Part shown: positions 15,831 to 61,394 of the stretch, piece by piece | How the letters are laid out: every line of letters begins with the position of its first letter | Numbering within the stretch: the first letter of the stretch is position 1 | Source: an uncultured Acidobacteriota bacterium | GTDB taxonomy: Bacteria > Acidobacteriota > Thermoanaerobaculia > Thermoanaerobaculales > Sulfomarinibacteraceae | Reading direction: 5' to 3' | NCBI GenBank assembly: GCA_963753035.1 | Contig: CAVWAW010000009.1 | Location: 2,956-66,955, forward strand | DNA: 64,000 bases | Made by a program: the position numbers and the translations under genes | Notes under the pieces: model-generated | Told to the model about the DNA's origin: nothing | Database searches by the model: none | The model's input: only the letters and a program-made list of their open reading frames with translations

Positions 15831-16986
15831 ATGAGAATGATCGTACTCGGCTGCGGCCTGGTCGGTGGACCGATGGCCGTGGATCTGGCGAAGGATCCAG
15901 GGTCTGAAATCACCATCGTCGACAGAAACCAAGATGCGCTACGAGCCTTGGCGGGCAAACACTCCAACATCGAGACGGTGCAACGGGATCTGGGAAATCC
16001 GCGAGAGATAGCTGCGCTGATCGCCGACCATGACATCGTGATCAACGCGGTCCCCGGATTCATGGGTTTTCAAACCCTCGAGGCCATCATCGGAGCCGGG
16101 AAGAACGTCGTCGACATCGCCTTCTACCCGGAGAACCCCTTCGACCTCGATGCTCTGGCCAGGGACCGGGGCGTCACAGCGGTGGTCGACTGCGGCGTGT
16201 CCCCGGGTCTGAGCAATCTGCTGATAGGCCACATCCACGAGCGGCTGGACCGAACCGACTCGATTCTCATCTATGTCGGTGGGCTGCCGGAGATCCGCCA
16301 CTGGCCCTTCGAGTACCGTGCCGTTTTTTCGCCCATGGACGTCATCGCCGAATACACCCGGCCGGCGCGTTTCGTGGAGAACGGCAGACTGGTGACCCGT
16401 CCCGCCCTCTCCGATCCCGAGCTCATCGACTTTCCCGGCATCGGAACCCTCGAGGCGTTCAACACCGACGGTCTCAGAACCCTGGCCGATACAATCGACG
16501 CTCCGAACATGAAGGAGAAGACCCTCCGCTACCCGGGCCATATCGAGAAAATGGTCTTTCTACGCGAAGCGGGGTTCTTCGACGAGGAACCGGTCGTGGT
16601 CGACGGCCGTCCGATTCGACCGGTCGATTTCACCGCCGAGCTGATGTTCCCGCAGTGGCAGATGGACGACGGCGAGGTCGACATCACGGTGCTGCGGATC
16701 ATGGTCGAGGGCGAGGAGCGACGGCCAGTCTCGTCGGTATGTCTACAACCTCTTCGACCGATACGATTCCTCGAGCGACACCCACTCCATGGCCCGCACC
16801 ACCGGCTACACCGCCACCATGGCGGCACGGCTGTTGGCAACGGGCCGGTACGACCGGAAAGGCATCTCGCCGGCGGAGTTCGTGGGACGTGACCGAGAAT
16901 GCGTCGAGTTCATGCTCAAAGGCCTCGCTGATCGTGGCATCATCATCGAGGCGCACGAGGACGCCTTGGCGCACCAGAAGTCGTGA
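15831..16986 (+). pseudogene. Saccharopine-dehydrogenase-family oxidoreductase; single frameshift at about 16719
   Basis: Rossmann N-terminus MIVLGCGLVGGPMAVDL. The C-terminus YVYNLFDRYDSSSDTHSMARTTGYTATMAARLL is in the +1 frame (ORF 16789..16986). Removing c16719 gives VEGEEDGQSRRYVYNLFDRYD. Confidence 0.75.
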
Positions 16987-17053
16987 GAGTCCGAATCCGT
17001 ATTTGCTAAGGTGTCATCGGGCCAAAACCTCGCCTTCCGCCAGGAGGATCACC

Positions 17054-18506
17054 ATGCGTCCCAAGGTCAGATTTCTCGACGACGACCTCAAGATCAGGAT
17101 CATCGACGAGGCCCGCCATCTGCTGTGCACGCTCGGCGTGGAGATTCACAACCCCCGCGTGCTCGGTCTGATCGGCGACCACGGCGCCGAGGTGGATCCG
17201 GCCAAGCAGCATGTCCGATTGACGGACGAACTCATCGACCGGGCGCTATCCACCGTGCCGAGCGGATTCAAGCTCTACGACGTCGTCGGCCGGCAGACGC
17301 ACGACCTCTCGGGCGACAACGTGTACTTCACGCCAAGCTCGGCCGCCATCAACATCCTCGACAACGGCGCCATGCGAAAGCCCCAAACCGCCGACTACGT
17401 CAAGTATGCCAAAGTGGTCAGCGGGCTCGATCACATTCAGGCGCAAAGCACGGCATTCATCCCCGCAGACGTGGCCGAGGAGATCTCGGACAGTTACCGG
17501 CTCTTTCTCAGCCTGCTCTATTGCGAAAAACCGGTGGTCACCGGAGCCTTCACAATCGGTGCGTTCGACATCATGCGTGATCTCCAGCTGGCGGTCCGTG
17601 GCTCTGCGGAGGCGCTCAGGTCCAAGCCGTTGACCGTCTTCTCGTGTTGCCCCACAGCACCCATCAAGTGGAGCGAGTCAACCTCGCAGAATGTCGTGGA
17701 TTGCGCTCGGATGGGAATCCCGGTGGAGTTCATCTCGATGCCGTTGTCCGGTTTCATGGCGCCGGTCACGATTGTCGGGTCTCTGATCCAGCACACCGCC
17801 GAGACTCTCAGCGGCGTTGTCATCAGCCAACTCGCCGGCCCCGGCACACCGGTCCTCTACGGCGGCTCTCCCGCGATCTTCGACATCCGGTACGAAACCA
17901 CGCCCATGGGCGCCGTCGAAACCGAGATGCTCGATTGCGCCTACTCAGAGATCGGCAAACACCTCGGCATGCCCACCCAGGCCTATATCGGCTTCAGTGA
18001 CGCAAAACGGTTCGACGCCCAGGCGGGCTTCGAAACCGCCATGGGGGCGACCCTGGCGGCGTTGTCCGGCATCAACAGCATCTCAGGTCCCGGAATGCTC
18101 GACTTCAGCAGCTGTTTCAGCCTCGAGAAGCTCGTACTCGACAACGAAATCTGCGGCCATGACACAGCGTCTCGTCAGGGGAATCGAGCCGCGAGAGGAC
18201 TTCCCCTCCACGCCGATCTTCGAGGAGCTCATCCGCGACAAGCACCTGCTCATCGCCGATCACACCCGGCGCCACCTCAAGGACGAGATCACTTTCCCGG
18301 GACCCGTCGTCGATCGCGCGAACAGCTCTCGTTGGCTCGAGGATGGGGCACTCACCCTCCACGAACGGGCCGCGAAAGAGGTCGGGAAACTCATCGATTC
18401 CTACCAACCTTCGGCGTTACCCGACGATGTCAAATCCGAGCTGGAACGCCTGATGACGGCTGAAGCGCGTCGATTCGGCATGGATAGTCTGCCCGGCCGG
18501 GATTGA
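17054..18506 (+). pseudogene. MttB-superfamily (non-pyrrolysine) quaternary-amine:corrinoid methyltransferase; single frameshift at about 18158
   Basis: MRPKVRFLDDDLKIRIIDEARHLLCTLGVEI... runs to ...LVLDNEICG in ORF 16655..18463. It continues MTQRLVRGIEPREDFPSTPIFEEL... in ORF 17817..18506. The extra c lies in ggCCatg. RBS aggagg precedes ATG 17054. Confidence 0.8.
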
Positions 18507-20002: not shown

Positions 20003-22468
20003 TCAACACCTGACGCGCTCCATCTTGGGGTCGTACATCGGGCGCATGGGCAGGCCAACCTGGAGGGGGTAGCGCTTGCCCGCAATGTCGATCTCCCATT
20101 CGCCCGCCTCGAGATAGGCCTTGTTGATCGGTTCGCCGGCCTCGATCATGGCCAGACCCACCGCGCCGCCGAGGGTGAATCCGTAGCTCGCCGCACGGAC
20201 ATAACCGACCGCCTTGTTGTTCCGATAGACGACCTCGGCGTGGTAGAGCAGCGGTTCGGGGTCCCTGACCAGCACCTGCAGCAGGCGCTGGTTGTAGGCC
20301 GGCCCCTGGGCCTTCTTTTCGACACAGAATGCCTTGCCGATGAAATCCGGTTTCTTGAGGTCCACCGCGAAACCGAGACCGACCTCATAGGCGTTGTCGG
20401 TGTTGTCGATGTCGTGACCGTAATCGCGGTAGGCCTTTTCCATGCGCAGGCTGCCCAGAGCCCGCAGACCGGCGTGACGAAGACCGAAGTTCGCGCCCGC
20501 CTCGATGACCCGGTCGTAGACGTGCGCCGCCTGCTCCGCGGGGATGTTCAACTCGTATCCGAGTTCGCCGACGTAGGTGATCCGGTTGCACGTCATGCGT
20601 GCGTACCCGATGTCGATCTCGCGTGCGGTGCGGAAGGGAAAGGCCTCGTTGGACAGATCCGCCGATGTGATGGATTGCAGCAACTCCCGCGATCTCGGGC
20701 CCTGCACATTGAGCTGACCGATTCCGCCCGTGACATCGGTGAGAAAGCAGTGCGCATCCGATGGGATGTGGCGCCTGAGCCACGTCTCGACGTGGCGGTG
20801 CATGGTGTCGGTGACCACCACGACAAAGCTCTCCTCGTTCAGTTTGGTGACCGTGACGTCGGCCTCCAGTTTGCCGCGTTCGTTGAGAAACTGGGTGTAG
20901 GTGATGGTCTCGACCGGGCCGTTGACGCTGTTGGCCGAAATGTGGTCGAGCACCCTCCCGGCATCGCGCCCCTGGACGAGAAATTTCCCCATGAACGTCA
21001 TGTCCATGGCGATGACGGCCTCGCGGCAGGCCCGGTGTTCCGCCTCCCAATAGGGAAACCAGTTCTGTCGTCCCCATGACAGTTTCTCGACCTTGGGCTC
21101 CCGTCCCTCCGGCGCATACCAGGCCGGGCTTTCCCATCCGCTCACATCGGTGAAGTAGGCGCGTTGGTCCTTCAGCCGATCGTGAAAGGGTGAACGCTTG
21201 CAGTCGCGCGCGGTCAGGGGCACGCGGGTGGGATAGTGGCGTCGAAAGACCATCCCCAGTGTCTCGACCACGCGGGTCTTGCGGTACTCGGGGTTGCACT
21301 GGTAGGGGTGAAAGCGATCAACATTGATCCCGGTGATGTCCGCACCCGGGTCGCCGGTGGTGATCCACTGGGCCATGATCCTGCCGAGGCCGGGACCGGT
21401 GATGATGCCGATGGAGTTGAGTCCCGCGGCGACGAAGTAGTTCTCGATCTCCGGCGCCTCGCCGAAGGCCACGCCCATGTCGGGCGTAAAGCTTTCCGGG
21501 CCGCAGAAAAATTTCTTGAGGCCGATCTCCCGGGAGATCGGGACGCGGCTCATGGCTTTCTCGAGGAAGGGCGCCATGCGATCCCAGTCGGGCTCGATCT
21601 CGCCGAAGGTGAAGTCATCGGGGACGCCGTCCACCATCCACGGGGCGCAGACCGGCTCGAACAGTCCGATCATCAGGCCGCCTCCTTCTTCCCGGTAGTA
21701 TCCGTGACAGGAGGGGTCCTCGATGATGGGCAACTGCCGCGTCATTCCCTCGAAGGGCTCGGTGATGAGGTAGTAGTGCTCGGTGGACTGGTTCGGGATG
21801 CTCACGCCCGAGAGGGCGCCGAGCTGTCGCGCCCACATGCCGGCGCAATTGACCACGAACTCAGCCTCGATGGTGCCCTGCGTGGTGGTCACGCCCGTTG
21901 CTCGGCCGTTCGTGGTGGTGACGCCCGTGACCGCCACGCCCTCGATGATCTTGACGCCCTTCTGACGTGATCCTTTGGCCAGGGCCATGGTCGCGTCCAC
22001 GGGATTGACGCGCCCATCCTGCTTCAGATAGTAGCCCGCCTGGATATCGTCGACCCTGGCCAGGGGAAAGAGCCTCTTGATCTCATCGGGGCCGATCTCC
22101 TCGACGTCGTTGCCGTGCAGACGGTTGAACGTCGCGACCCGCCGATACTCCTCCACCCGGTCCGAGTCTGCGGCGAGCTCGATGAGACCCAGGGGCTCGA
22201 AGCCGGTGCCGAGCCCGGTCTCCGCCTCGAGACGACCATAGAGTTCACGTGTGTACATTCGCATCTCGATCGAGGTCGCCGAGGTCGAGCCGAAGGTGGT
22301 CATCAGCCCCGCGGCGTGCCAGGTCGTGCCCGAGGTGAGCTCGCTCCGCTCGATGAGAACGACGTCACTCCAGCCGAGGTGGCCGAGGTGGTAGGCGATG
22401 GAACAACCGATGATGCCGCCGCCGATGATGACGACGCGCGCGTGATCCGGAACCTGTTCTGCTGGCAT
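20003..22468 (-). CDS. Dimethylglycine/sarcosine-dehydrogenase-like flavoprotein (DAO domain + GcvT aminomethyltransferase domain)
   Basis: FAD fingerprint VVIIGGGIIGCSIAYHL and a C-terminal GcvT-like half. I chose ATG 22468 (MPAEQV...). Confidence 0.85.
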   Translation of the reverse strand: MPAEQVPDHARVVIIGGGIIGCSIAYHLGHLGWSDVVLIERSELTSGTTWHAAGLMTTFGSTSATSIEMRMYTRELYGRLEAETGLGTGFEPLGLIELAADSDRVEEYRRVATFNRLHGNDVEEIGPDEIKRLFPLARVDDIQAGYYLKQDGRVNPVDATMALAKGSRQKGVKIIEGVAVTGVTTTNGRATGVTTTQGTIEAEFVVNCAGMWARQLGALSGVSIPNQSTEHYYLITEPFEGMTRQLPIIEDPSCHGYYREEGGGLMIGLFEPVCAPWMVDGVPDDFTFGEIEPDWDRMAPFLEKAMSRVPISREIGLKKFFCGPESFTPDMGVAFGEAPEIENYFVAAGLNSIGIITGPGLGRIMAQWITTGDPGADITGINVDRFHPYQCNPEYRKTRVVETLGMVFRRHYPTRVPLTARDCKRSPFHDRLKDQRAYFTDVSGWESPAWYAPEGREPKVEKLSWGRQNWFPYWEAEHRACREAVIAMDMTFMGKFLVQGRDAGRVLDHISANSVNGPVETITYTQFLNERGKLEADVTVTKLNEESFVVVVTDTMHRHVETWLRRHIPSDAHCFLTDVTGGIGQLNVQGPRSRELLQSITSADLSNEAFPFRTAREIDIGYARMTCNRITYVGELGYELNIPAEQAAHVYDRVIEAGANFGLRHAGLRALGSLRMEKAYRDYGHDIDNTDNAYEVGLGFAVDLKKPDFIGKAFCVEKKAQGPAYNQRLLQVLVRDPEPLLYHAEVVYRNNKAVGYVRAASYGFTLGGAVGLAMIEAGEPINKAYLEAGEWEIDIAGKRYPLQVGLPMRPMYDPKMERVRC

Positions 22469-22648
22469 GGGCACATCCTGTGATGGAGATAGAAACAACA
22501 ACCCTCGATGTTGACGGACCTTCAGGACCGATGAACTCTCCTCGCGCTCCAGCAATAGTACACGACGGATTCTCTTTGTTCTCGCTCGATTTACGGCGCC
22601 CTCGCCGAGGTTTGGCGAACCATCTGCGAGTCACCCTGAGCGAGCGAG

Positions 22649-23607
22649 TCAGACGACGTAGTCCTCACGCTCCATCGCCTCGAGCTCTCGAGAAACGGCC
22701 GCCCTCACCTCCGGCGGCATGTCGTGCTCCCTGGCCAACATCGGGCGCAGCCCCTTGCCAACGCCGTCATCGATGAAGTGGGGCCGGACAAAATCGGAGG
22801 TCCAGGTCCGGTCCTCGAAGGACCTGCTCTCGAGCCGCTCGAAGAAGCTCTTGATGCCCCTGTCCGGATCTCCTTCCAACTCCCTGAAGTAGGAGCCGTA
22901 GATGTGGAGCGAGTCGCTGATGTCGACATAGCGGCCGAGCCGAACCGGCCGGCCGCTTGATTTCGAGATCTTCTCCGCGATCTTTCGCATCAGCGCCGTC
23001 AGGGCGATAACGTTCTCGAACCAGGCCTTGTAGAGATCACGGCTCCGCCAGTGCGTGTTCATGTTGAAGACGAGGACCCCGTCATCATCCTCGATCAGCC
23101 GTCCCCAGATTCTCTGCAGACACGGCGGATGATCTGAGGGCGGGTCGAGAATCGGGTTCCAAGTGATGCCCTGAGCGCGTCGGCTGTAGCCGGTCCGGGC
23201 GAGCTTCTTCACCATGAAATCCAACTGGTCGATGACCGAATTGTCGATCTCGTACTCGGCGAGACGCCGGTGATAGGTGTAGGTCCAGCGGGTATCGGTG
23301 CTGTCGACGCCTTTGAGGATCTCCTCCCGCGGCTTGATCCAATAGTCGTGGGCGCCGTGAACAACTTCCATGACGTACTCTGAGAGTCCCCCAGCCCATC
23401 GGCAAATGAACGGTGGAAACGCGGCTGGCCGAACGGATTCTCGACGGTGATCACCACCGTGGCATCCCGGCTCGGCGGATCCTCGGGACGATCGTACTCG
23501 GTGCGGACGCTCACCCCTTTTTCCCAGACCTCCTTGATGGCCCTCTCGTACGCGCGCGGGATAGTCTCGCCGAAAACACTCAAAACCGGAATGTCCCCTG
23601 AGTTCAT
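22649..23607 (-). pseudogene. Thymidylate-synthase-fold protein (divergent, archaeal-like); -1 frameshift in a C5/G5 run at 23388-23392
   Basis: The N-terminal part (MNSGDIPVLSVFGETIPRAYERAIKEVWEKG...FADGLG) is in ORF 23209..23607. The remainder (GLSEYVMEVVHG...RRAQGITWNPILDPPSDHPPCLQRIW...HWRSRDLYKAWFENV...SLHIYG) is in ORF 22649..23659. Adding one G restores DGLGGLSEY. Confidence 0.6.
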
Positions 23608-23687
23608 ACTTCCTCCCTCGGATCAATTCTAGTCTCAACCGGAGAGGACGACTCCCCACCCGACAGGGTGCCAGGCACTACCGTGGT

Positions 23688-24101
23688 CTATTCGAGCTGA
23701 TCGAGAGATCTCGGGCTCGTAAGCCTTGATAGACACTCGATGAGTTCGTCCTGATCGACCGGTTTGGCGAGCACGCAATCGGGCCCGCGCTCGAGATCAA
23801 GGCCCCTGAGATAGGTCCTGCCGTTGTCCTGGACGATGGAGTCGTTGCCGGTGAGGACCACCACGGGAACCGGTGACCAGCGTTCGTGTTGGCGGATCGT
23901 CACGAGCAGATCGAGCCCGGATCTTCCGGGCATGATGACATCGAGGATGACCGCATCGGGCTCGACCTCGTCGAGGGCGACCAACGCCGCCGATGTGCGA
24001 TTCGCCGACGAAACCTCATATCCGTGATCCTCGAGAAAGAGACCGAGATACTCAACGATGTCAGGGTCGTCGTCGACCACCAGGATCCGTCTCGGTTCCA
24101 C
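23688..24101 (-). CDS. Receiver-only response regulator
   Basis: ILVVDDDPDIVEYL, VILDVIMPGRSG and AKPV are present, with no output domain. The GTG start shares one base with the kinase TAG stop (TAGTG). Confidence 0.85.
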   Translation of the reverse strand: MEPRRILVVDDDPDIVEYLGLFLEDHGYEVSSANRTSAALVALDEVEPDAVILDVIMPGRSGLDLLVTIRQHERWSPVPVVVLTGNDSIVQDNGRTYLRGLDLERGPDCVLAKPVDQDELIECLSRLTSPRSLDQLE

Positions 24102-25681
24102 TAGGAACTCCCGGCAGTCCTGGCTCCGGCGATCTCGCCGTCGACCGTCGTGCTCGGGCGGGCGACCAGCGGAATCCGGACGACGAAACGGGTGCCCTTG
24201 CCCGATTCGGATTCGACATCGATGTTGCCACCATGTTTGTCGACGATCTTGTTCGAGATGAAAAGCCCGAGACCCGTCCCCTTGAGACCCTTGGATGAGA
24301 AGAACAGCGAAAAGATCCGATCACGGGTCTCCCTGTCCATCCCGATCCCGTTATCCTCGACCGAAATGATCATATAGGGCTCGGCCCGACGGGCTCCGAC
24401 GGTGATGACATGGTCGGTCTTTTCGCTGTCCATACGGCAGGCATCGATGGAGTTCTCGATGAGATTGAGCAACATCGCCCGAATCGCCTGAGGATCGCCA
24501 TCAAAAACGCCGATATCGTCGGGAATCTTGAATCGGACGTCGGCGCCGAGATCGAGGGCCTTCTTCTTGATGCCGTCCCTCAGATCGTCGACCATCCCCG
24601 CGAGGCTGATGTCCTCGACGATGAGTTCCCGATCCTTGGCGTAGTAGAGAATATCGAGCACCATGGACCGAATCCGATCCACGTTGCGCTGGACCATTTC
24701 CCAGCCTTTTTTGACCCGCTCGGGTTTGTCTCGCTCGAATCCGGAGTTCACCATGTAGATGCCGCCGTCGAGACCGGTGAGCAGGCCCTTGATACCGTGC
24801 GAGATCGAACCAACCAGAAGTCCGATGGAGGTCAACTGGTCCTGCAGTTTGCGAATCTGGGTGATGTCCACACCCATCTCGATGACGGACTCGACCACGC
24901 CATCGGAATTCCGAAGCGGGGCGGTGGTGACCAGAAGATTGAGCTCTTCGCCATCCTTGGACAAGACCGTGGTCTCGTAGTCGTGCGTATCGCCGGTCTC
25001 GAACGTACTCATCATCGGGCACGTAAGGCACTTTTCCTCACGGTGCTTGTAAACCCGGAAACACTCCTCGCCGACACCGTAACCAAAGGCCTCACGGAAT
25101 CGTCGATTGGCGCGGCGAATGACGCGGTCGGGCCCCTGGACGGTGATAAAGCAGGGCACCTCTTCGAAGAGCTGCAGCAGCCGCCCCTGGCTCTGCCGGA
25201 GTTCTTTCTGGAGTACCTTGACCTCCTCGATCTCGGTGTGCATCTCCATCACCGCCACAACCTCGCCCGAGGTATCGCGAATCGGGGTCGTGTGCACCAT
25301 CACCGGAACCTGTTCCCCTGATGCCGTCGTCAGCAGTTGTTCCGACGGATGATTCTGGCCATCGAGAAACGTCGCCTCCACGGGGCAACTCGGGCAGATA
25401 TCGTCACGCCCCTTGTAGACCTTGAAACAGTGCTGGCCGATCCTTTCGCCGAAGTCCTGACGAAAGCGTCGGTTTCCCTCGATGATCCGGAACTCCCGGT
25501 CGTGGATCGAGAGATAACAGGGCATTTCGTCCCAGTACCGACGATACATGGCGGAATCTGTTAGCAGGTGCGAGTTCGCTTCGACACCGTGCACCCGCCT
25601 GGCGGCAGAAAAACCATCGGGCTCGACCGCGCCGGAATCCGGCGCGGTCGGCCCGATGGGAATGAGATCTCTATCGGCCAA
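24101..25681 (-). CDS. Sensor histidine kinase with two PAS domains, each carrying four Cys
   Basis: H-box SISHGIKGLLTGL and ATP-lid motifs DNGIGM and GTGLGL. The PAS regions have PCY...HCFKVYKGRDDICPSCP and PCF...ECFRVYKHREEKCLTCP. The TTG start lies 2 nt after the upstream stop. Confidence 0.85.
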   Translation of the reverse strand: MADRDLIPIGPTAPDSGAVEPDGFSAARRVHGVEANSHLLTDSAMYRRYWDEMPCYLSIHDREFRIIEGNRRFRQDFGERIGQHCFKVYKGRDDICPSCPVEATFLDGQNHPSEQLLTTASGEQVPVMVHTTPIRDTSGEVVAVMEMHTEIEEVKVLQKELRQSQGRLLQLFEEVPCFITVQGPDRVIRRANRRFREAFGYGVGEECFRVYKHREEKCLTCPMMSTFETGDTHDYETTVLSKDGEELNLLVTTAPLRNSDGVVESVIEMGVDITQIRKLQDQLTSIGLLVGSISHGIKGLLTGLDGGIYMVNSGFERDKPERVKKGWEMVQRNVDRIRSMVLDILYYAKDRELIVEDISLAGMVDDLRDGIKKKALDLGADVRFKIPDDIGVFDGDPQAIRAMLLNLIENSIDACRMDSEKTDHVITVGARRAEPYMIISVEDNGIGMDRETRDRIFSLFFSSKGLKGTGLGLFISNKIVDKHGGNIDVESESGKGTRFVVRIPLVARPSTTVDGEIAGARTAGSS

Positions 25682-25683
25682 GG

Positions 25684-27495
25684 TCAGTTTGCTTTCTCGT
25701 CTACTTTCTCAATGATATGCGCTACATAGGATATCAGTTTCTCTTCATCGACCGGTTTGTTGAGGTAGCCCTCTGGGGGCGGCACTCCGCGATCATAGAT
25801 GACCTTGCGGAACTCCGGGTGGCCGGTGACGACACAGACCGGAATTTCCTGGATCTCCGGGGTCTTGCGGAGTTCGAAAAAGGCATCGACACCGCTCTTT
25901 CCGGGCATGGAAAGATCGAGGGAGATGAGATCCGGTTTGAAGGTTTTGGCCTTCTCGATGCACTCGTCGCCATCGGCGGCTTCCACAACCTCGGCGCCGG
26001 CGTCCTCGAAGACCGTGACGAGGAAGGTCCTGATGTCCTCTTCATCGTCGACCACCAGAATCTTCCGTCCGGCCAGGGGCGCCTCGGCGGCGACGGCGGG
26101 AGCGGCAGCCTTCTCATCAACGGGTTCCACAACCACCGGGGGTTCGGGCATCGGCGCGCCGGCCGGGCGGTTCTTCATGACGGCGCATTCCTCGAGCACC
26201 AGCGCATCGGCCACAAGGTCGACGAGCTGCTTGACCTCGCAGCCGAGCTCGTAGTGCTTGATCAGGTCCGACAGGCCGTCGACGCAGTTGTGGCAGCTGG
26301 TGACCACGACTGTAGCGCCGGTCTCGCGGATCTGGTTGGCCTTGATCTCGGCAGACTTGAGCCTGCGCGGGGTGTACTCGGACATGGACATGGCGCCGCC
26401 GCCGCCCGTGCAGCAGAAATTCTCGGCACGGTTGGGGTACATCTCCTGGAAGTCGGTGGTGACCATCCTGAGCAGCTCGCGCGGCTCCTCGAAGAAACCG
26501 CAGCTGCGGGCGTTGTTGCACGAATCGTGGAAGGTCATTCGCTGGGAGTTCTTGGTCGGATCGACGACGATCTTACCCTGCTTGATGTACTCGATCATCG
26601 TCATGACCGAGCTCTCCATCGGAAAGGCCTCGGCATCACCCGACCAGTTGACGCCTTCGCACCGGGTCGACCGGTAGCCGTGGCCGCACTCCGAGATCAC
26701 GATCTTCTCGACGCCCAGTTCCCGAGCCTTGTCGTACTCGCGTTTTGCACTTGCGCCGCCGAGGCCGTCGTCGCCCGAGAAGAGGCCGAAGTTGGTGTTG
26801 TCCCAGCCTTCGGACGGCATGGTCCAATCCTCACCGGCAGCCCAGAAGATGAGCGCGGCTTCCTTGATGGTGCGCGGGTCGTACTTCACTTCGCGCGGGT
26901 TGATGGCGTACATGATCTTGGCGCCGGCTTTGTCGATGGGAATCTCAGCCTCACCGTGGCCGAGATCCTCTTCGAGCTCCTCGGACATCCACTCGATGGT
27001 GTCGAGGTAGTCCTCCTTGAGGACGCCCATCTGGTTACCGAGCTCCCACTGGTCCTTTGAGACAACCCGAACGCCTTCGGGCATCACGCCGACGTTGGTC
27101 AGCAGACCGCGCATGATCCGGTTCAAAGTGGCGGTGTCGACGCCCATCGGACAGTTGATGGTGCAACGACGGCAGTTGGTGCAGGTGCCGAAGGCGACAT
27201 CCTTGAGCTTGTCAAGGTCTTCGTCGGTCAGCGGCACCTTGTCGGCGCCAACCCACCAGGGAAAGACACTTCCCGTCCAGTCGTGGTTGGCCTTGAAGAG
27301 CTTGCGCAGCTGATCGGCCTTGTACGACGGGGTCATCTTGGGGTCTTCCGGGTGCGACAGAACATAGTGGCAGCAGTCGTTGCACATGCCGCAGTGGACG
27401 CAGCCCACCAGCGAGCCGACCACCTGGCGGTTCAGCTTCTTGGTGAGCTGCTCTTCCATCATTTTGATCTTGTGAGTTTTGGCTGGTTTGGTCAT
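25684..27495 (-). CDS. HdrD/DsrK-like iron-sulfur CCG-domain oxidoreductase fused to a C-terminal receiver (REC) domain
   Basis: Two Cys clusters (CVHCGMCNDCC, CTNCRRCTINCP) and CCG-type motifs (FCCTGGGG ... SCHNCVDG; CGHGYRSTRC ... FHDSCNNARSC). The REC has KILVVDDEED, LISLDLSMP, VCVVTG and LNKP. AGGAGG lies 5 nt before the ATG. Confidence 0.75.
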   Translation of the reverse strand: MTKPAKTHKIKMMEEQLTKKLNRQVVGSLVGCVHCGMCNDCCHYVLSHPEDPKMTPSYKADQLRKLFKANHDWTGSVFPWWVGADKVPLTDEDLDKLKDVAFGTCTNCRRCTINCPMGVDTATLNRIMRGLLTNVGVMPEGVRVVSKDQWELGNQMGVLKEDYLDTIEWMSEELEEDLGHGEAEIPIDKAGAKIMYAINPREVKYDPRTIKEAALIFWAAGEDWTMPSEGWDNTNFGLFSGDDGLGGASAKREYDKARELGVEKIVISECGHGYRSTRCEGVNWSGDAEAFPMESSVMTMIEYIKQGKIVVDPTKNSQRMTFHDSCNNARSCGFFEEPRELLRMVTTDFQEMYPNRAENFCCTGGGGAMSMSEYTPRRLKSAEIKANQIRETGATVVVTSCHNCVDGLSDLIKHYELGCEVKQLVDLVADALVLEECAVMKNRPAGAPMPEPPVVVEPVDEKAAAPAVAAEAPLAGRKILVVDDEEDIRTFLVTVFEDAGAEVVEAADGDECIEKAKTFKPDLISLDLSMPGKSGVDAFFELRKTPEIQEIPVCVVTGHPEFRKVIYDRGVPPPEGYLNKPVDEEKLISYVAHIIEKVDEKAN

Positions 27496-27504
27496 TGAAT
27501 CCTC

Positions 27505-28191
27505 CTAACCCCGGGCGATGGGGTAGCTGCCCCGGTGACCAAGCGTACGGCCGATCCAGATCCGGGTGAAGGGGTAATAGAGATAGTGGGAGATCTTTGA
27601 AAACGGAACATAGACCAGGAAGAAGCTGGTCAGGAAAAGATAGGCCACGAGGATGTTCACACTCTCGAAACCCTGGACACCCGCTAGGTGGGCCTGAGTC
27701 ACGGTGCCGAGACCGAACCACGCGGTCAGCATGAAGAGCGAGAAGTAATCGTCGGGTGTACTGATGAGTTTCATCACCGGAGTGAAGAGCCGCCGAAATA
27801 CCCGGTAGATCGCGACCAGAAACGCGAGGAACAGGGTGCTCCCGCAGATCCAGGCGAATGCCGGGCTGGCGACGAGATTCGGGGTGATCGAACTCAAGAA
27901 AGCCAGGGTGATGCCCGCGACCACGCCGAGATGGAAAATGACGAAGGTGAGGTAGAAGGCAAAGCCCTTGCGGGTGCTCTCCATCGACCACGGCATCGCC
28001 ACGTTGAAGAGCGAATAGAAGGCGCCCTTCTTCTTGTCGGTGCGTTGGGGCGCGCCCGGGGCGGATTTGTCGACGCCTGGCTTGAATTTGAAGAGCCACC
28101 TCAGGCGGAGGGAATAAACAACGGCCATGATGATCAGCGCCGCCCAGTGGACGATCTCGGCCGTGTGCAGCAGAGAACTCGACTCGTGCAT
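27505..28191 (-). CDS. Multi-pass membrane protein, NarI/DsrM/HdrE-like (putative b-type cytochrome/quinol-interacting subunit)
   Basis: It has several hydrophobic helices with conserved-looking His residues (EIVHWAAL, VIFHLGVV, FSKISHYLYYPF). It sits directly upstream of the CCG protein. ATG 28191 is 1 nt from the macro stop. Confidence 0.5.
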   Translation of the reverse strand: MHESSSLLHTAEIVHWAALIIMAVVYSLRLRWLFKFKPGVDKSAPGAPQRTDKKKGAFYSLFNVAMPWSMESTRKGFAFYLTFVIFHLGVVAGITLAFLSSITPNLVASPAFAWICGSTLFLAFLVAIYRVFRRLFTPVMKLISTPDDYFSLFMLTAWFGLGTVTQAHLAGVQGFESVNILVAYLFLTSFFLVYVPFSKISHYLYYPFTRIWIGRTLGHRGSYPIARG

Positions 28192-28192
28192 G

Positions 28193-28726
28193 TCACACTC
28201 CTTCTTCGAATTTCGCGGTAAACGGACCAATTTCCCGGGGATCCTGTACCACGATCAGGACATCCTCGAGACCCGAGCCGTTTTCCAGGTGCCGACCGAT
28301 GGTGTCGATCATGACCCTGGCGCAGAGATCCATGGGAACCTGATAGATCCCGGTCCCGATGGGTGGGAATGCGAGCTGTTTGATGCCCTTCTCCTCGGCG
28401 AGAGCGAGCGCCGCCATGGTGGCTTTTTCGAGCTTGCCCGCTTCGTCTTCTTCACGGAACTTCGGGCCGTTGACGTGAATGATGTGGTTGGCCTTCAGGA
28501 TTCCGGCCTGGGTGACCACAGCTCCGCCGGTCGGGACCGAGCCGATCTCATCGAGTTCTTTTTGAATGACGATTCCACCGCGCTGTTGGATTGCGCCGCC
28601 GTACCCGGATCCCAGCTTGGCGTCCTCGGTAATGTCAAAGACAAAGGCCTCGACCTCGATGTCGGTAATGTCGCCACGCACCATCCGAAGTCGCTTGCCG
28701 CCGATGTTTCGCTCCACCATCTCCAT
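28193..28726 (-). CDS. Macro-domain (ADP-ribose binding/hydrolase) protein
   Basis: 177 aa with GDITDIEVEAFV, GSGYGGAIQQRGG, NGPKF and AFPPIGTGIYQVP. Confidence 0.85.
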   Translation of the reverse strand: MEMVERNIGGKRLRMVRGDITDIEVEAFVFDITEDAKLGSGYGGAIQQRGGIVIQKELDEIGSVPTGGAVVTQAGILKANHIIHVNGPKFREEDEAGKLEKATMAALALAEEKGIKQLAFPPIGTGIYQVPMDLCARVMIDTIGRHLENGSGLEDVLIVVQDPREIGPFTAKFEEGV

Positions 28727-28783
28727 CCTCCTCGTTCATAATTTCACAAGCCCGGGTGCCTCCCATTCGGGAGATCCCGGGCC

Positions 28784-29260
28784 TCAACTGCTCGACAGAA
28801 CGCTTCCCATTTGGATTTGCATCTCTCCGAGCTCAATTCCCTTTTCCCTAGCCCACGAAGGATCAAGGAGATCCTCCAGAGTGAATTCATCGAGCACCTG
28901 GGCGATCTTTTGATTGATGAGGCCGTAGACGATCCTGCATTCACAGAATTCGGCCTTCAGACATGACTCCGGCTCTTCGACGCAGTCAACGATGCAGACC
29001 GGTCCGATCGACGCTTCAATGATCTGCCGGATGGTGATTTTCGATGGCGGCGAGGCGAGCCGGTATCCCCCGTGCCTTCCCGCAACACTCTTGACCAACC
29101 GGGCGGCGCGAAGCGCAGGCGCCAGCTGTTCGAGGTATCCATGCGAGATGTCCGTTCGACCTGAAACCGACGATAGACTGACGGGCGAGGCGCTCCCTCC
29201 ATGATGGGCGATGTCGAGCATCATTCGAAGAGCGTAGCGGCCGCGGGTGGAGATCCTCAT
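28784..29260 (-). CDS. Rrf2-family (IscR-like) transcriptional regulator with a Cys cluster
   Basis: MRISTRGRYALRMMLDIA... is a winged-helix N-terminus, followed by the Cys-rich segment CIVDCVEEPESCLKAEFCEC. I chose ATG 29260. Confidence 0.85.
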   Translation of the reverse strand: MRISTRGRYALRMMLDIAHHGGSASPVSLSSVSGRTDISHGYLEQLAPALRAARLVKSVAGRHGGYRLASPPSKITIRQIIEASIGPVCIVDCVEEPESCLKAEFCECRIVYGLINQKIAQVLDEFTLEDLLDPSWAREKGIELGEMQIQMGSVLSSS

Positions 29261-29283
29261 GGCGATTTCGAATTTAAACATAA

Positions 29284-29308
29284 AATACCCATCTGTCAAC
29301 TAGGTATT
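29284..29308. promoter_or_regulatory. Candidate Rrf2 operator (AATACC-N13-GGTATT) in an AT-rich divergent promoter region
   Basis: The inverted repeat is read directly 24 nt upstream of the Rrf2 start. The shape is similar to IscR-type sites (ATAxx...xxTAT). Confidence 0.4.
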
Positions 29309-29423
29309 AATGAATACATCCTGATTCTCATTCTCAGAGCGCGAATTGTTGCCCGAGACCAACCGGGGTGCTATCTTGAAATCGACCGATGGCCCGGGCA
29401 ACGGAGTCGGTCTAGGAGGCAGA

Positions 29424-29807
29424 ATGGCAGCGAAAACCGCCCTCATCATCGACGACGAACCCGATGTCACGACCTACCACGGAACCGTGCTCAGCGATCA
29501 CGGCTGGGAAGTTCACACAGCGAACAGTGGCGCCGACGGCATCGCCATCGCTCAGGAAAAGAATCCGGATGTGATCTTGCTCGATGTGATGATGCCGGAG
29601 AAAGGCGGGCTCAGCACGCTGATCGCTCTGCGGAAGGACGATCGGACGAAGGAAATACCCGTGGTCCTCGTCACCGGGATCCAGGAAGCCCTCAACGCCG
29701 ATTTCGAGGCGTTTCTCGCCAGGTTCAAGACATACAACCCGAACGGGTATATGGAAAAGCCTATCGACGTGGACAAGCTGATCTCGACCCTGGAAGAACT
29801 CATCTGA
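29424..29807 (+). CDS. Receiver-only response regulator
   Basis: ALIIDDEPDV, ILLDVMMPEKGG, VLVTG and MEKPID. RBS aggagg is at 29414-29419. Confidence 0.85.
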   Translation: MAAKTALIIDDEPDVTTYHGTVLSDHGWEVHTANSGADGIAIAQEKNPDVILLDVMMPEKGGLSTLIALRKDDRTKEIPVVLVTGIQEALNADFEAFLARFKTYNPNGYMEKPIDVDKLISTLEELI

Positions 29808-30426
29808 GCTTCAAACGGAGGGGCCACGCCGCGGCCTCGCCGGCGTAGTCGACACCAACCCGTGGGAGCCGATCCATACCGAGATCGGAAAAGCTGCGCC
29901 CATCCGACCGGATGGTGAGCGGACTTCCCGGATCGCCGAAATCGAGACCGTTCTCGGCACGGGTGACCGCCAATGCTTGGCAGAGCTTTCCGGGACCGTC
30001 GGTGAGGTTTCGCAGAGCGACTTTCGGCCCGCGCCGCCCGCGCACGAGTCCGTTCCCCAAGACCGGGACCCCACCTCGAATCAGAACCGCCTCGGGCACG
30101 CCCTCCCCTACCGTCACCACGTTGAGGCAGTGGTGCATCCCGTAGATGAGATAGACATAGGCCCTTCCCGCCTCACCCCACATGGTCTCGGTCCGCGGGG
30201 TTCGCCTGCCCCCGAAGGTGTGGCAGGCCGGGTCATCGACACCGAGATAGGCCTCGACCTCGGTGAGACGGACCGCGACGGTCCCCCCCGGCGTCTGGTG
30301 AACGAGGATCTTGCCGAGGAGATCCTGCGCGACGTCCAAGGTTGGGCGTTGGTAGAATCCACAGGACAGGACTGCAGCCTCGGCGAGGCTTTCCGCGGTC
30401 AGGAGGTCAGCAATGGGTTCAATCAT
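29800..30426 (-). CDS. mpg: DNA-3-methyladenine glycosylase (Mpg/AAG family)
   Basis: VAQDLLGKILV, TEVEAYLGVDDPACHTFGGRRTPRTETMWGEAGRAYVYLIYGMHHCLNVV and GPGKLCQAL. The start could also be 30453. Confidence 0.85.
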   Translation of the reverse strand: MIEPIADLLTAESLAEAAVLSCGFYQRPTLDVAQDLLGKILVHQTPGGTVAVRLTEVEAYLGVDDPACHTFGGRRTPRTETMWGEAGRAYVYLIYGMHHCLNVVTVGEGVPEAVLIRGGVPVLGNGLVRGRRGPKVALRNLTDGPGKLCQALAVTRAENGLDFGDPGSPLTIRSDGRSFSDLGMDRLPRVGVDYAGEAAAWPLRLKLR

Positions 30427-31342
30427 CTGTGTCACAGGGGGCGCCGGTTTCATCGGCAGTCATGTTGCCGAAGCGCTGGTGCGCGACGGACACCAGGTTG
30501 TGATTCTGGACGACCTCTCCAGCGGCCGCAAGGAGAATATCCCCGAAGGCGCTGAACTCGTCATCGCGGACATCAGATCCGACAAGGCGGCGGGCGCCAT
30601 TGTCGATCGTGGGGTTGAGATTCTCATCCACCACGCGGCGCAGATGGATGTTCGGCGATCGGTGGCGGACCCGCGTTTCGACGCGGATGTCAACATCGGA
30701 GGGTTTCTCAATCTGCTGGAGGCCGCCCGAACCGGCTCAGTCAAACAGGTCATCTTCGCCTCCACCGGCGGCGCCATCTATGGCGAACAGGATGTTTTCC
30801 CCGCCGACGAAGGCCACGCCGTTCGACCGCTCTCGCCCTACGGTGTGTCCAAGCTCGCCAGCGAACGCTATCTCTTCTTTTACAACCAGCAGTACGGGCT
30901 CGATGTCACGTGCCTTCGGTACGCCAACATCTACGGCCCACGGCAGAGCCCGCACGGCGAGGCGGGGGTCGTCGCGATCTTTGCCCACAAGCTCCTGGCG
31001 AACGTCCAGCCCACCATCAACGGCGACGGAAAACAGAGCCGAGACTATGTCTATGTCGGCGATGTCGTCCGCGCCAATCTCGCGGTCCTCGGACTCCCAG
31101 GATTCCGGACCTTCAACATCGGCACCGGGGTCGAGACCGATGTCAACGAGCTCTTTGAACAGCTCCGCGCAGCCATCGGAACCGGCCCGCCGGCCGACCA
31201 CGGCCCGGCAAAGGCCGGCGAGCAGCTTCGATCGTGTATCACCTCAGGACTCATCGAGTCCGAACTGGGGCTGAGAATCGGAACCCCCTTCGATCAGGGG
31301 ATTCAGATCACCGCGGACTGGTTCAAAGCGCAGCAGGCGTAG
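30413..31342 (+). CDS. NAD-dependent epimerase/dehydratase (UDP-glucose 4-epimerase-like)
   Basis: GGAGFIGSH Rossmann motif and YGVSK (YxxxK) catalytic motif; 309 aa. Confidence 0.85.
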   Translation: MGSIICVTGGAGFIGSHVAEALVRDGHQVVILDDLSSGRKENIPEGAELVIADIRSDKAAGAIVDRGVEILIHHAAQMDVRRSVADPRFDADVNIGGFLNLLEAARTGSVKQVIFASTGGAIYGEQDVFPADEGHAVRPLSPYGVSKLASERYLFFYNQQYGLDVTCLRYANIYGPRQSPHGEAGVVAIFAHKLLANVQPTINGDGKQSRDYVYVGDVVRANLAVLGLPGFRTFNIGTGVETDVNELFEQLRAAIGTGPPADHGPAKAGEQLRSCITSGLIESELGLRIGTPFDQGIQITADWFKAQQA

Positions 31343-31532
31343 CAGCGGCAGCTGGGGCAGCAGCGGCCGGGAATCCCACCTAGCCCAACCGTCCCGCACT
31401 CTCTCGGAAACGCCCAACCGACTTCAACGTCTCTGACGGGCAGGCTGGAAGCCCGCCCCCACAATGCCCACCCACCCTGATCTGGTTCCGAAACCGAGGC
31501 CGACCAGAGCACGCGGAAAACCCCGCCCCCTC

Positions 31533-31771
31533 GGGGTGCCGGGTACGCCATTGTGCTGGAACCACCACCCGGCTCCGTCCCGCGCCCCGCACAATGGCGC
31601 TACCGGGCTCCCTCGGGAGGCACGATGCGGTCTGCTCTCCCGGCTACGAGGCAGGCCGCCGGCGTACCATCGGCGTGGTCGCAGCCCTCCCCGCCTCCCA
31701 CGCGCGACCACGCCGATGGTGCGACGCTGGGCCGCCGGGACGCCAAAGCGTCACGACGGCCCAGAAGGCCG
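31533..31771 (+). repeat. Rep-A double-hairpin element, copy 2
   Basis: Hairpin 1 pairs 31537-31560 with 31588-31611 (core cgccattgtgc/gcacaatggcg). Hairpin 2 pairs 31661-31682 with 31704-31725 (17 bp perfect, plus a U-G pair). The tail is cccagaaggccgg. Confidence 0.8.
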
Positions 31772-31987
31772 GCGTCAATAGAACCCCGTAGCCGTGACCG
31801 TTGCCGTTGCCGTGACCGCGGCCGGGAATCCCACCCAGCCCGACCGTCCCGCACTCTCTCGGATACGCCCAACCGACGTCAACCTCTCTGACGGGCAGGC
31901 GGGACGCCCGCCCCCACAATGCCCACCCACCCTGATCTGGTTCCGAAACCGAGGCCGACCAGAGCACGCGGAAAACCGCGCCCCATC

Positions 31988-32226
31988 GGGGTGCCGGGTA
32001 CGCCATTGTGCTGGAACCACCACCCGGCTCCGTCCCGCGCCCCGCACAATGGCGCTACCGGGCTCCCCCGGGGAGCTCGATGCGGTCTGCTCTCCCGGCT
32101 ACGAGGCAGGCCGCCGGCGTACCATCGGCGTGGTCGCAGCCCTCCCCGCCTCCCACGCGCGACCACGCCGATGGTGCGACGCTGGGGCGCCGGGACGCAT
32201 TGGCGTCACAGCGGCCCAGAAGGCCG
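31988..32226 (+). repeat. Rep-A double-hairpin element, copy 3
   Basis: Near-identical to copy 2; it is part of the second 455-bp unit. Confidence 0.8.
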
Positions 32227-32255
32227 GCGCTGAGGGCATGGCCCGGAACCACAGC

Positions 32256-32510
32256 AGCGCCCTTTGTTGCGCCCACGTCTCGGGGGCGATGAAACCAACC
32301 CGCGTCGGTACACCGCCATCGCCGGCGGGACGCTGGCGCTACAAACATCGCAGCGCCCTTTGTTGCGCCCACGTCTCGGGGGCGACGGAACCAACCCGCG
32401 TCGGTACACCACCATCGCCGGCGGGACGCCGGCGCTACAAACATCGCAGCACCCTTTGTGGCGCCCACGTCTCGGGGGCGATGAAACCAACCCGAATCGG
32501 CACTCCCCCG
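32256..32510 (+). repeat. 96-bp tandem repeat, about 2.7 copies, each with small GC hairpins
   Basis: cagcgccctttgttgcgcccacgtctcggggg...ggcgctacaaacatcg restarts at 32256, 32351 and 32447. It contains gccggcg gga cgccggc hairpins, one copy with a G-U pair on the + strand. Confidence 0.85.
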
Positions 32511-60482: not shown

Positions 60483-61394
60483 CTAGTCAATCAAGTAAAG
60501 GAGGAGGAAAAGGTAGATCCAGATGATGTCCACCACGTGCCAGTAGAGGGCGACCATATCCACCTTGGTGAAGTGGCCGCCGTCGAAGTCGCCGCGCCTG
60601 AGGCACTTGAGCAACCAGAGCATGGCGGCGATCCCGCCGAGGACGTGGATGCCGTGGAGTCCGGTCATCATGAAGTAGATCGAGAAAAAGACCCTCGCGT
60701 TGAGCGGCTCGACCGGGACGAGGTCGTGGTCCGCCTCTTCTACCGGTCCCGCCAAGCCCTCCGGTCCGCGGGCGGCCGGTGCAATGGTTGAGCTATCCGG
60801 ATCGGCGACAACGGGCGCCGGATCGATCTCGACCTCAGCGGCGACGGGCTCGACGATTTCACCCTCCGCCACGGCTTGAATCTCCTCGATCTCGATGATC
60901 TCGACATCGGCCTCAGGCGTGTGAAGCTCGCCCTCGACTTCGATGGTCTCGAAGGCTTCCTCGTGGTCCACATGGGGGTTGTAGGCCCCTGCCCACAGCA
61001 GACCGTGTTTCCACTTGGCGCTGTACTCGACATACTTGACGCCGAGGAAGGCGAAGGCGCAGAGCATGGTCGCGATGATCAGCCACTTCAGCAGTTTGAT
61101 CTGCTTGAGCTGGGCTGCGCGAACCGCCCAGGCGATGGTGAACGAACTGAAGATGAGCACCACGGTGTTGAGCGCACCGAGCGCGGTGTCGAGGAAATGG
61201 GCGCCGAAGACAAAGACCTCGGGGTGGTTGCCGCGATAAACCGTGTAGGCGACGAAGAGGCCACCGAAGAAAAGGATCTCGGTTGCCAGGAAGAGCCACA
61301 TCCCGAGCTTGGCCGACTGGCGCTGCTGTTCGGTCGATTCGAAGTGATGGGCCAGATTGGGATCGTGGCCGTCGTCGTGGTGCTGCGCGGCCAT
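60483..61394 (-). CDS. coxC: Cytochrome c oxidase subunit III with a ~95-aa acidic insertion
   Basis: LGMWLFLATEILFFGGLF, FFSIYFMMTGLHGIHVLGG and LYWHVVDIIWIYLF. The insertion is HVDHEEAFETIEVEGELHTPEADVEIIEIEEIQAVAEGEIVEP... Confidence 0.85.
   Translation of the reverse strand: MAAQHHDDGHDPNLAHHFESTEQQRQSAKLGMWLFLATEILFFGGLFVAYTVYRGNHPEVFVFGAHFLDTALGALNTVVLIFSSFTIAWAVRAAQLKQIKLLKWLIIATMLCAFAFLGVKYVEYSAKWKHGLLWAGAYNPHVDHEEAFETIEVEGELHTPEADVEIIEIEEIQAVAEGEIVEPVAAEVEIDPAPVVADPDSSTIAPAARGPEGLAGPVEEADHDLVPVEPLNARVFFSIYFMMTGLHGIHVLGGIAAMLWLLKCLRRGDFDGGHFTKVDMVALYWHVVDIIWIYLFLLLYLID

Follow-up and report, generated by a model that had tools for sequence, protein, structure and literature searches.

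A recurrent bacterial gene cassette in which a DsrK/HmcF/TmcB-like iron-sulfur subunit carries a receiver domain and is encoded with a cysteine-rich PAS kinase

Respiratory iron-sulfur (Fe-S) enzymes of the DsrMK, Hdr, Hmc and Tmc group are thought to be controlled mainly by transcription. Their DsrK, HmcF and TmcB subunits share a signature, a single CCG motif (CXnCCGXnCX2C) together with the cysteine of a T/GECGH motif, which has been tied to a noncubane [4Fe-4S] cluster that reduces disulfides or trisulfides with electrons from menaquinol, delivered via b haems (PMC10861901). The thiol/disulfide chemistry has been shown for the DsrMK(JOP)/HdrED enzymes (PMC10861901). In Desulfovibrio vulgaris, the regulatory genes rrf1 and rrf2 lie downstream of the hmc operon and control it (Keon 1997, as cited in 10.1101/2023.11.02.564894). 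Here we describe a related cassette in a 64,000-nucleotide stretch of DNA (the window) from an uncultured Acidobacteriota bacterium of the Sulfomarinibacteraceae (GenBank assembly GCA_963753035.1, contig CAVWAW010000009.1, positions 2,956 to 66,955 of the forward strand). Its six genes, all on the minus strand (29260-23688), encode an Rrf2-family regulator, a macro-domain protein, a NarI-like membrane protein, a DsrK/HmcF/TmcB-like Fe-S subunit with a C-terminal receiver (REC) domain, a cysteine-rich PAS kinase and a free receiver. We propose, at a probability of about 0.45, that the cassette specifies a quinol-linked reductase of protein disulfides (DsrC-type), and that a kinase sensing through cysteines or an Fe-S cluster switches its catalytic subunit by phosphorylation.

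Inspection of the open reading frames (ORFs) in the window placed all six genes where the initial annotation had put them, and profile searches against Pfam and NCBIfam recovered every domain it had named. In transcription order, the genes encode the Rrf2-family regulator (28784-29260; Pfam Rrf2, 4.5e-33), the macro-domain protein (28193-28726; Pfam Macro, 2.8e-27), a 228-residue NarI/HmcE/TmcC-like membrane protein that is a putative cytochrome b (27505-28191), a 603-residue fusion of the Fe-S subunit (residues 1-440), a Pro/Ala-rich linker and the receiver (25684-27495; CCG, Fer4 and Response_reg), a soluble PAS-PAS-HATPase histidine kinase recognized by Pfam (24101-25681), and a 137-residue REC-only protein (23688-24101; Pfam, 1e-21). 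A seventh associated gene, absent from the earlier list, runs divergently on the plus strand (29346-29807; Pfam Response_reg, 1.9e-19) and encodes a second REC-only protein; its likely start at ATG 29424 would give 127 residues.

The close junctions that had been reported between these genes could all be read directly: TGAcATG at the macro-membrane boundary (28195-28189), AGGAGG 6 nt ahead of the ATG at 27495 that starts the CCG::REC fusion gene, TGAccTTG with its 2-nt gap between the fusion and kinase genes (25686-25679), and a TAGTG overlap between the kinase and REC-only genes (24103-24099). Through this overlap, translation of the REC-only protein (23688-24101) is predicted to be coupled to that of the kinase. 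For the macro gene, the second ATG (28720), where the Shine-Dalgarno spacing is better, may be the start. Although the TTG start of the kinase was doubtful at first, a TTG or GTG 2 nt past the stop codon is kept in 6/6 close relatives, and these six lack frame-breaking indels. The kinase start lies 50-130 nt further on in other clades.

Judged by the conservation of its motifs, the Fe-S (CCG) subunit looks like an active enzyme. Its NCBIfam matches are HmcF (1e-95), TmcB (6e-94) and DsrK (2e-75). It contains two ferredoxin-type CxxCxxCxxxC motifs (C32-C35-C38-C42 and C105-C108-C111-C115; Pfam Fer4_8, 1.2e-08), a single C-terminal CCG motif (C326...C361-C362...C401-x2-C404; Pfam CCG, 1.3e-11, one copy), and a SECGH motif at residues 268-272, in which C270 is the counterpart of the T/GECGH cysteine. 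Across 78 orthologues, conservation is 97% or higher for both CxxCxxCxxxC motifs, for the CCG cysteines and for C270. With the NarI fold of the membrane protein described below, these matches and motifs back the initial assignment of an HdrD/DsrK-like CCG subunit and a NarI/DsrM-like membrane subunit.

This subunit is joined to the receiver (residues 477-596; 25708-26067; Pfam, 1.2e-20) by a linker that is rich in Pro and Ala, about 40 residues long and poorly conserved. The receiver matches the fold of RR468/PhoB with a template-modeling (TM) score of 0.88. Its acidic pair is kept, the phospho-acceptor D527 (codon 25915-25917) and the Lys are present in 69/69 orthologues, and the Thr is present in 67/69, with Ser in the other two. 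An AlphaFold model of the 603-residue fusion had a predicted local distance difference test (pLDDT) score of 63, with the N-terminal domain below 50, and fold searches with this model returned only receivers, plus LutA for the CCG part. In public annotations, the fusion protein appears as "response regulator" or "Fe-S oxidoreductase/CheY-like".

The membrane protein matched HmcE (8e-13) and TmcC (5e-10) in NCBIfam; it had no match in Pfam, and a sequence search of the PDB returned nothing, so that NarI was seen by fold search only. The AlphaFold model (pLDDT 78.9) consists of long helices, and the top eight Foldseek matches in the PDB were all NarI (probability 1.0, with modest TM scores of 0.41-0.51 and E values near 5e-3). 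The model thus predicts a five-helix bundle with the NarI fold. Two histidines, H87 and H202, are invariant in 76 orthologues, and H202 lies in a PFSKISH motif similar to the PFTRLVH motif of NarI. The other histidines vary in the same set: H9 is present in 55/76 and H219 in 42/76, and position 15 alternates between His and Gln. NarI-type di-heme proteins have four His ligands. Since the histidines other than H87 and H202 vary, the putative cytochrome b may hold one haem rather than two.

For the macro protein, the best PDB match was 2dx6 (TTHA0132; 1e-23). The adenine-binding Asp of the GDIT motif is kept in 68/71 orthologues, and the LGSGxGxAI and GxGxY loops are also conserved. The NAAN asparagines of MacroD-type hydrolases were found in 0/71 orthologues, which have F/Y-D/Y-I/A-T/Q in their place, and all NCBIfam macro equivalogs scored below their cut-offs. 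As the Asp and Gly loops are kept and the NAAN asparagines are absent, the protein probably binds an ADP-containing ligand rather than acting as a MacroD-type hydrolase. We also considered a role for the macro gene in a defence system; no PADLOC model matched, and generic cross-hits to the receivers were the sole return.

The kinase (HATPase_c, 1.4e-25; conserved phospho-His H294) has no membrane segment and is cytoplasmic. Its two tandem PAS domains each contain four cysteines with the spacing C-x29-C-x10-C-x2-C (C55/C85/C96/C99 and C177/C207/C218/C221), and each of the eight is at least 97% conserved. No PAS structure with this cysteine motif was found in a comparison with the PDB. An alignment to LOV domains, though weak, puts C207 at the position of the flavin-adduct cysteine and hence inside the cofactor pocket. 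The cysteines could form a metal or Fe-S site, or they could be redox-active thiols.

All three receivers keep the Asp/Asp/Asp/Thr/Lys set and, on these acceptor residues, are predicted to be functional. In the downstream REC-only protein (23688-24101), D54, T84 and K113 are each conserved in 55/55 orthologues; in the divergent one, which occurs mainly in Acidobacteriota, the D80/T110/K138 triad is conserved in 30-31 of 31. The three receivers of the window, and also the REC of locus L051, best match the NCBIfam "DVU0259 family" of single-domain receivers. Two of the three stand alone and the third is C-terminal to the Fe-S oxidoreductase, an architecture of which we found no description in the literature; none is joined to a described DNA-binding or enzymatic output domain.

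The initial annotation had held that a lack of conservation in related genomes would tell against the gene set as a unit. A genome scan with the fusion protein as query yielded 80 loci (52-97% identity), in which the set recurs under about ten phylum-level labels. These comprise Acidobacteriota (Thermoanaerobaculia, Sulfomarinibacteraceae, Holophagae, Korobacteraceae), Planctomycetota, Zixibacteria, Myxococcota, Ignavibacteria, Syntrophaceae/Thermodesulfobacteriota, Thermodesulfovibrionia, LCP-89, Fibrobacteraceae and Pseudomonadota, the closest being uncultured Acidobacteriota bins in which the fusion protein is 94-97% identical; an exact look-up of the fusion protein returned no entry. When the proteins of the window were mapped onto loci with enough flanking sequence, the membrane gene was present in 74/74, the macro gene in 70/74, the kinase gene in 65/68 and the downstream REC gene in 59/68. 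The order macro, membrane, CCG::REC, kinase, REC and the shared strand are identical throughout, with median gaps of 2 nt (macro-membrane), 11 nt (membrane-CCG) and 2 nt (kinase-REC). All-against-all clustering of every ORF in the 80 loci revealed no further gene conserved around the cassette in distant lineages.

The fused family is a compact clade, more than 50% identical over many lineages. In a library of 1.84 billion representatives at 50% identity, it has a single full-length representative (P0241), and only 270 representatives matched at an E value of 1e-30 or better. Such compactness across so many lineages suggests strong constraint, horizontal spread, or both. We found three loci (L072, L077 and L079) in which the trio of macro, membrane and CCG genes occurs with no receiver fused to the CCG subunit. 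Neither L072 (Zixibacteria) nor L077 (Thermodesulfovibrionia) has a kinase or REC gene downstream of the trio; the contig of L079 ends about 100 nt past the CCG gene, and its downstream gene content falls outside the contig. Since the trio occurs without them, the two-component genes are likely an add-on to an enzyme with a function of its own, and the macro protein is likely part of the enzyme core rather than of the signalling. A further candidate for separate CCG and REC genes, L073, proved to be an artefact of tblastn segments, as its ORF encodes a 641-residue fusion with a longer linker.

How does the cassette compare with described systems? In D. vulgaris Hmc (HmcABCDEF), HmcF likewise has one CCG motif and the T/GECGH cysteine; HmcF is the best NCBIfam match of the CCG subunit here and HmcE that of the membrane subunit. 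Beside hmc lie rrf1 and rrf2, the latter encoding the protein that founded the Rrf2 family and gave it its name, and an Rrf2 regulator is present here too. The rrf1 gene encodes a receiver-type response regulator. Whereas the Hmc receiver is encoded separately, that of the cassette is fused to the catalytic subunit. The cassette lacks the cytochrome c HmcA as well as HmcB, HmcC and HmcD, adds the Cys4-PAS kinase, a second and third REC and the macro-domain protein, and is found well outside sulfate reducers. No gene for a periplasmic multihaem cytochrome c of the HmcA/TmcA type was found in the neighbourhood of the window's cassette, and none is conserved across the 80 loci. In the Tmc system (TmcABCD), TmcB and TmcC are homologues of the CCG and membrane subunits, while TmcA (cytochrome c3) and TmcD have no counterpart in the cassette; no REC fusion or macro protein is known in that system. 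The two-component genes DVU0258-DVU0260 adjoin tmc in D. vulgaris. DsrMK(JOP) and HdrED, oxidoreductases that couple menaquinol or methanophenazine to DsrC trisulfide or heterodisulfide, follow the same two-subunit plan as the cassette, a membrane b-type cytochrome with a CCG Fe-S subunit bearing the noncubane-cluster motif, but the cassette has the receiver fusion, no DsrJOP, and two invariant membrane histidines only.

The kinase also has described counterparts. NreB is likewise a cytoplasmic kinase with a four-cysteine PAS domain. The NreB PAS binds [4Fe-4S], with a spacing (C-x2-C-x11-C-x2-C) unlike that of the kinase here. In the kinases ArcB and RegB, cysteines that are oxidised in a quinone-dependent way control activity and tie it to the redox state of the quinone pool. 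The cassette differs from all three in its tandem Cys4 PAS domains and in the separate membrane redox enzyme encoded in the same operon. Overall, it looks like a stripped-down HmcEF/TmcBC module with a fused receiver, its own kinase, a macro subunit and no periplasmic cytochrome c. Our literature searches turned up neither an account of the cassette nor one of a DsrK-like protein fused to a REC. The initial statement that no characterised system has this composition is thus correct in the strict sense, but too broad in that hmc with rrf1/rrf2 is a precedent and the receivers best match the DVU0259 family.

The Rrf2 protein combines a winged-helix domain with three cysteines, C94-x5-C100-x5-C106, that are conserved in 48 orthologues and have the Fe-S-type spacing of cluster-binding family members. 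It scored below the cut-offs of the NCBIfam equivalogs IscR, CymR, NsrR and RirA and is thus none of these. A promoter-like, sigma-70-like site on the minus strand, TTGACA-17-TAAATT (29271-29299), ends 11 nt before the Rrf2 ATG, giving a near-leaderless arrangement; the -35 TTGACA is conserved across Thermoanaerobaculia-type loci. Overlapping the -35 element is an inverted repeat, ATACCTA-N9-TGGGTAT (29285-29307, minus strand), which is kept across about 30 orthologous loci and has the perfect form ATACCTA...TAGGTAT in L003. This repeat resembles the operator of an autoregulated Rrf2 protein and is a candidate for that role. A direct repeat, TGAGAATGAGAAT (29324-29336, minus strand), lies in the intergenic region between the Rrf2 and divergent REC genes; it too is conserved in about 30 orthologous loci and takes the form TGAGAnTGAGA in most Thermoanaerobaculia loci.

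The identity of the upstream DNA binder is swapped between lineages, and it is Cys-rich in every type seen. Rrf2 is upstream of the cassette in 40/66 loci. It is replaced in 11 loci, whose labels include Zixibacteria and Ignavibacteria among several other groups, by a regulator of about 265 residues that consists of HTH_17, a Cys-rich region and a degenerate REC-like domain. This undescribed type of regulator, which matches Pfam at the HTH and nowhere else, is encoded upstream of the macro gene (L043:7857-8654, and in L039, L052, L058, L060, L064, L069 and others). Four Pirellulaceae loci have in this position a 172-residue MerR protein with a Cys-rich tail (L054:8150-8668, L040:8133-8651, L059:1449-1967 and L075:8108-8671), whose C-terminal region contains about nine or ten cysteines, including C-x-x-C-P-V-Y-R. 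A short C-x-V-Y-R/K-x4-5-C motif is common to the Cys-rich regions of the alternative regulators and the Cys4 PAS domains. We rejected a common sensory module in these two sets of proteins, as hidden Markov model scores did not exceed 7 bits. Within the neighbourhood of the window's cassette, Pfam domain calls agree with the initial annotation that no REC has an output domain and that Rrf2 is the sole DNA binder; the absence of a DNA-binding response regulator is true of this window and is no rule for the cassette elsewhere.

We looked for leads to a substrate among neighbouring genes and relatives of the CCG subunit. DsrC/TusE-like genes lie beside the cassette in five loci (L042, L077, L040, L054 and L059). 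In L042, a DsrC gene with both redox cysteines is directly upstream of the macro gene. In L077, a DsrC/TusE-like gene directly follows the CCG gene, itself followed by an OsmC-type gene and, further on, by a gene with a desulfoferrodoxin domain. The Pirellulaceae loci L040, L054 and L059 have two or three DsrC/TusE-like copies within 1-4 kb. Tandem DsrC-DsrC fusions with the internal cysteine only (L040:6996-7781, L054:7155-7874 and L059:547-1212) are located 1-1.5 kb upstream of the cassette in Pirellulaceae bins and adjoined by single TusE-like copies. A DsrM-like/DsrK-like pair is directly upstream of the cassette in L051 and L057. In the representative library, the closest relative of the CCG subunit outside the REC-fused proteins is P0245 (45% identity), which has a DsrC-like domain fused at its C terminus, exactly at the position of the REC. 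A DsrC-type protein substrate is thus a lead, not a finding.

A model that accommodates these data is as follows. The macro protein, the NarI-like cytochrome b and the DsrK/HmcF/TmcB-type CCG subunit would form an enzyme core that, in analogy to DsrMK, HdrED and TmcBC, links the menaquinone pool by electron transfer to a thiol/disulfide substrate in the cytoplasm. The substrate would most likely be a DsrC/TusE-type protein, or else another protein or cofactor disulfide. The soluble kinase, with its Cys4 PAS pair, would probably sense cytoplasmic redox, oxygen or Fe-S status and phosphorylate the receiver borne by the enzyme, providing a post-translational switch of activity or substrate access. 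The co-translated free REC could compete as a phosphate sink or as a branch of the pathway, and the Cys-rich regulator (here the Fe-S-type Rrf2, as a redox-sensitive repressor) would control the whole unit from an operator that overlaps the promoter. The sequences themselves show which domains are present, that residues for catalysis and phospho-acceptance are conserved, and that different lineages keep the genes in order and closely coupled; which way information flows, which substrate and cofactors are used and what the macro protein does are inferred.

Several points weigh against this model. The CCG subunit falls far short of the equivalog cut-offs of HmcF (score 321, cut-off 750), TmcB (315 and 735) and DsrK (254 and 400), and the membrane protein of those of HmcE (48 and 275) and TmcC. 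Since both subunits are so far below these thresholds, the substrate need not be DsrC, the two proteins are best seen as a separate sister subfamily that is the orthologue of no named one, and the cassette should not be filed as Hmc, Tmc or Dsr. The window has no DsrC-like gene, most of the 80 loci have none nearby, and the DsrC-like domain of P0245 lacks both redox cysteines. With two invariant histidines in place of the four of NarI-type proteins, quinol coupling could differ from that of DsrM and NarI. The confidence of the fusion model is too low for a statement on how the receiver docks, and the sequence does not fix the direction of signalling. The lineage labels are those of metagenome bins, some of which may be wrong, and gathering the loci by similarity to the fused protein biases the fused fraction upward.

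The direction of signalling is what separates the model from a different view of the same genes, in which the membrane/CCG module is not a metabolic enzyme but a sensor input, sampling quinone or thiol redox and passing its state to the kinase, either through the redox of the PAS cysteines or through the tethered REC acting back, with the REC-only proteins, and possibly Rrf2, providing the output. The kinase itself lacks a membrane or periplasmic sensor domain, its eight invariant cysteines include two CxxC pairs that are possible disulfide substrates, and control by quinone-dependent cysteine oxidation has the precedents of ArcB and RegB. The three REC domains lack a classical output domain, and single-domain receivers that act back on a kinase are known, such as the Fe-S-binding receiver of PMC7078487. 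We consider this view somewhat unlikely, since at least three loci have the trio with no REC fused to it, two of them also with no kinase or REC at all, all catalytic motifs are as strongly constrained as in real enzymes, identity within the family stays above 50% from lineage to lineage, as is typical when an enzyme's substrate is fixed, and an external protein substrate is indicated both by the DsrC/TusE-like neighbours and by the P0245 fusion. Phospho-control of an enzyme is favoured over the enzyme as sensor for these same reasons, namely the trio without two-component genes, the enzyme-like constraint and the external links to DsrC-type proteins. A pure enzyme reading, in which the cassette is a second DsrMK/TmcBC-type complex that reduces DsrC trisulfide in dissimilatory sulfur metabolism and the regulators set expression only, draws on the homology to HmcF, TmcB and DsrK, on the full Dsr pathway, DsrC included, of the source organism's relatives Sulfomarinibacter, on the DsrM/DsrK-like pair upstream in L051 and L057, and on the two-cysteine DsrC gene in L042. 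It strikes us as quite unlikely, as the cassette also occurs in bins of Planctomycetota, Ignavibacteria, Myxococcota and Fibrobacteraceae, which are not generally known as sulfate or sulfite reducers. Scores far under the DsrK, HmcF and TmcB cut-offs, the lack of a periplasmic cytochrome c or DsrJOP partner conserved nearby and the heme-copper oxidase also encoded in the window speak against it as well, and it leaves the fused REC and the macro protein unexplained.

The receivers might instead be decoys that buffer phosphate for a kinase whose target is a DNA-binding regulator elsewhere, with the enzyme itself not phospho-regulated. REC-only sinks such as CheY1 of Sinorhizobium and LovR of Caulobacter are well established, and the HTH_17 regulator with its degenerate REC-like domain in 11 loci could be the real output. 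However, retention of the fusion under about ten phylum-level labels with the acceptor intact in 69/69 is hard to explain for a passive sink, and the separate REC already provides one; we regard this reading as very unlikely. Chance adjacency of unrelated genes is refuted for practical purposes, as 59-74 of the 66-74 informative loci, under about ten phylum-level labels, share the order, and the median gaps are 2-11 nt.

Beyond the phospho-switched reductase, an extended version can be imagined that we hold to be unlikely: the membrane quinol:protein-disulfide oxidoreductase would act directly on the Cys4-PAS kinase to set its thiol/disulfide or Fe-S state, the kinase would gate the enzyme via the tethered receiver, and the macro protein would add an NAD+/ADP-ribose-type input, making a self-contained, horizontally spread redox relay with a closed loop. 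By the same small chance, the redox state of the quinone pool would thereby be converted into phosphorylation. If true, such a feedback loop would link respiration, thiol redox and two-component signalling in a way not yet described. As a sister clade has a DsrC-like domain at the same position, the tethered receiver may be a phosphorylation-dependent pseudo-substrate or lid.

That a compact, widespread clade keeps an intact receiver on its catalytic subunit suggests that phosphorylation directly controls how electrons flow into cytoplasmic thiol chemistry. The hosts are abundant sediment and soil bacteria (Thermoanaerobaculia/Sulfomarinibacter, Zixibacteria and Planctomycetota), and the cassette gives a handle on the substrates of many "orphan" HmcEF/TmcBC-like modules outside sulfate reducers, on the role of single-domain receivers, and on why Rrf2 first turned up with rrf1 beside hmc. 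Its architecture is unusual and widespread, and with five to six genes it is experimentally tractable.

Elsewhere in the window, a thymidylate-synthase-like gene just downstream of the cassette (22649-23659 with 23209-23607, both minus strand) is split over two frames, one encoding roughly the first 75 residues and the other the remainder; the L003 orthologue is an intact ORF of 319 residues. The split is either a sequencing indel or a pseudogene. In L076 and L080, which are Microflora Danica bins, orthologous genes that are otherwise 86-97% identical are broken into several tblastn segments, which suggests frameshift errors in long-read assemblies and advises caution over the frameshift in the window.

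On the other side of the cassette, genes for a methylpurine-DNA glycosylase (29800-30453, minus strand) and an NAD-dependent epimerase (30413-31342, plus strand) overlap head to head by 41 nt (30413-30453), and the protein alignments overlap by 41 nt likewise in L001, L006 and other relatives. The stretch that follows is gene-poor and has two tandem repeat arrays, at 31363-32229 (a 455-bp unit in 1.9 copies, 95% identity) and 32254-32494 (a 96-bp unit in 2.5 copies, 94% identity); long ORFs across these arrays look like repeat artefacts. The window also encodes an MttB-superfamily methyltransferase (16655-18463, plus strand), a dimethylglycine/sarcosine-dehydrogenase-like flavoprotein fused to GCV_T (20003-22555, minus strand) and a heme-copper oxidase subunit I (61394-63091, minus strand). 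The methyltransferase and the GCV_T-fused flavoprotein suggest glycine-betaine demethylation, and since the window encodes the oxidase subunit, the organism is probably not a strict anaerobe.

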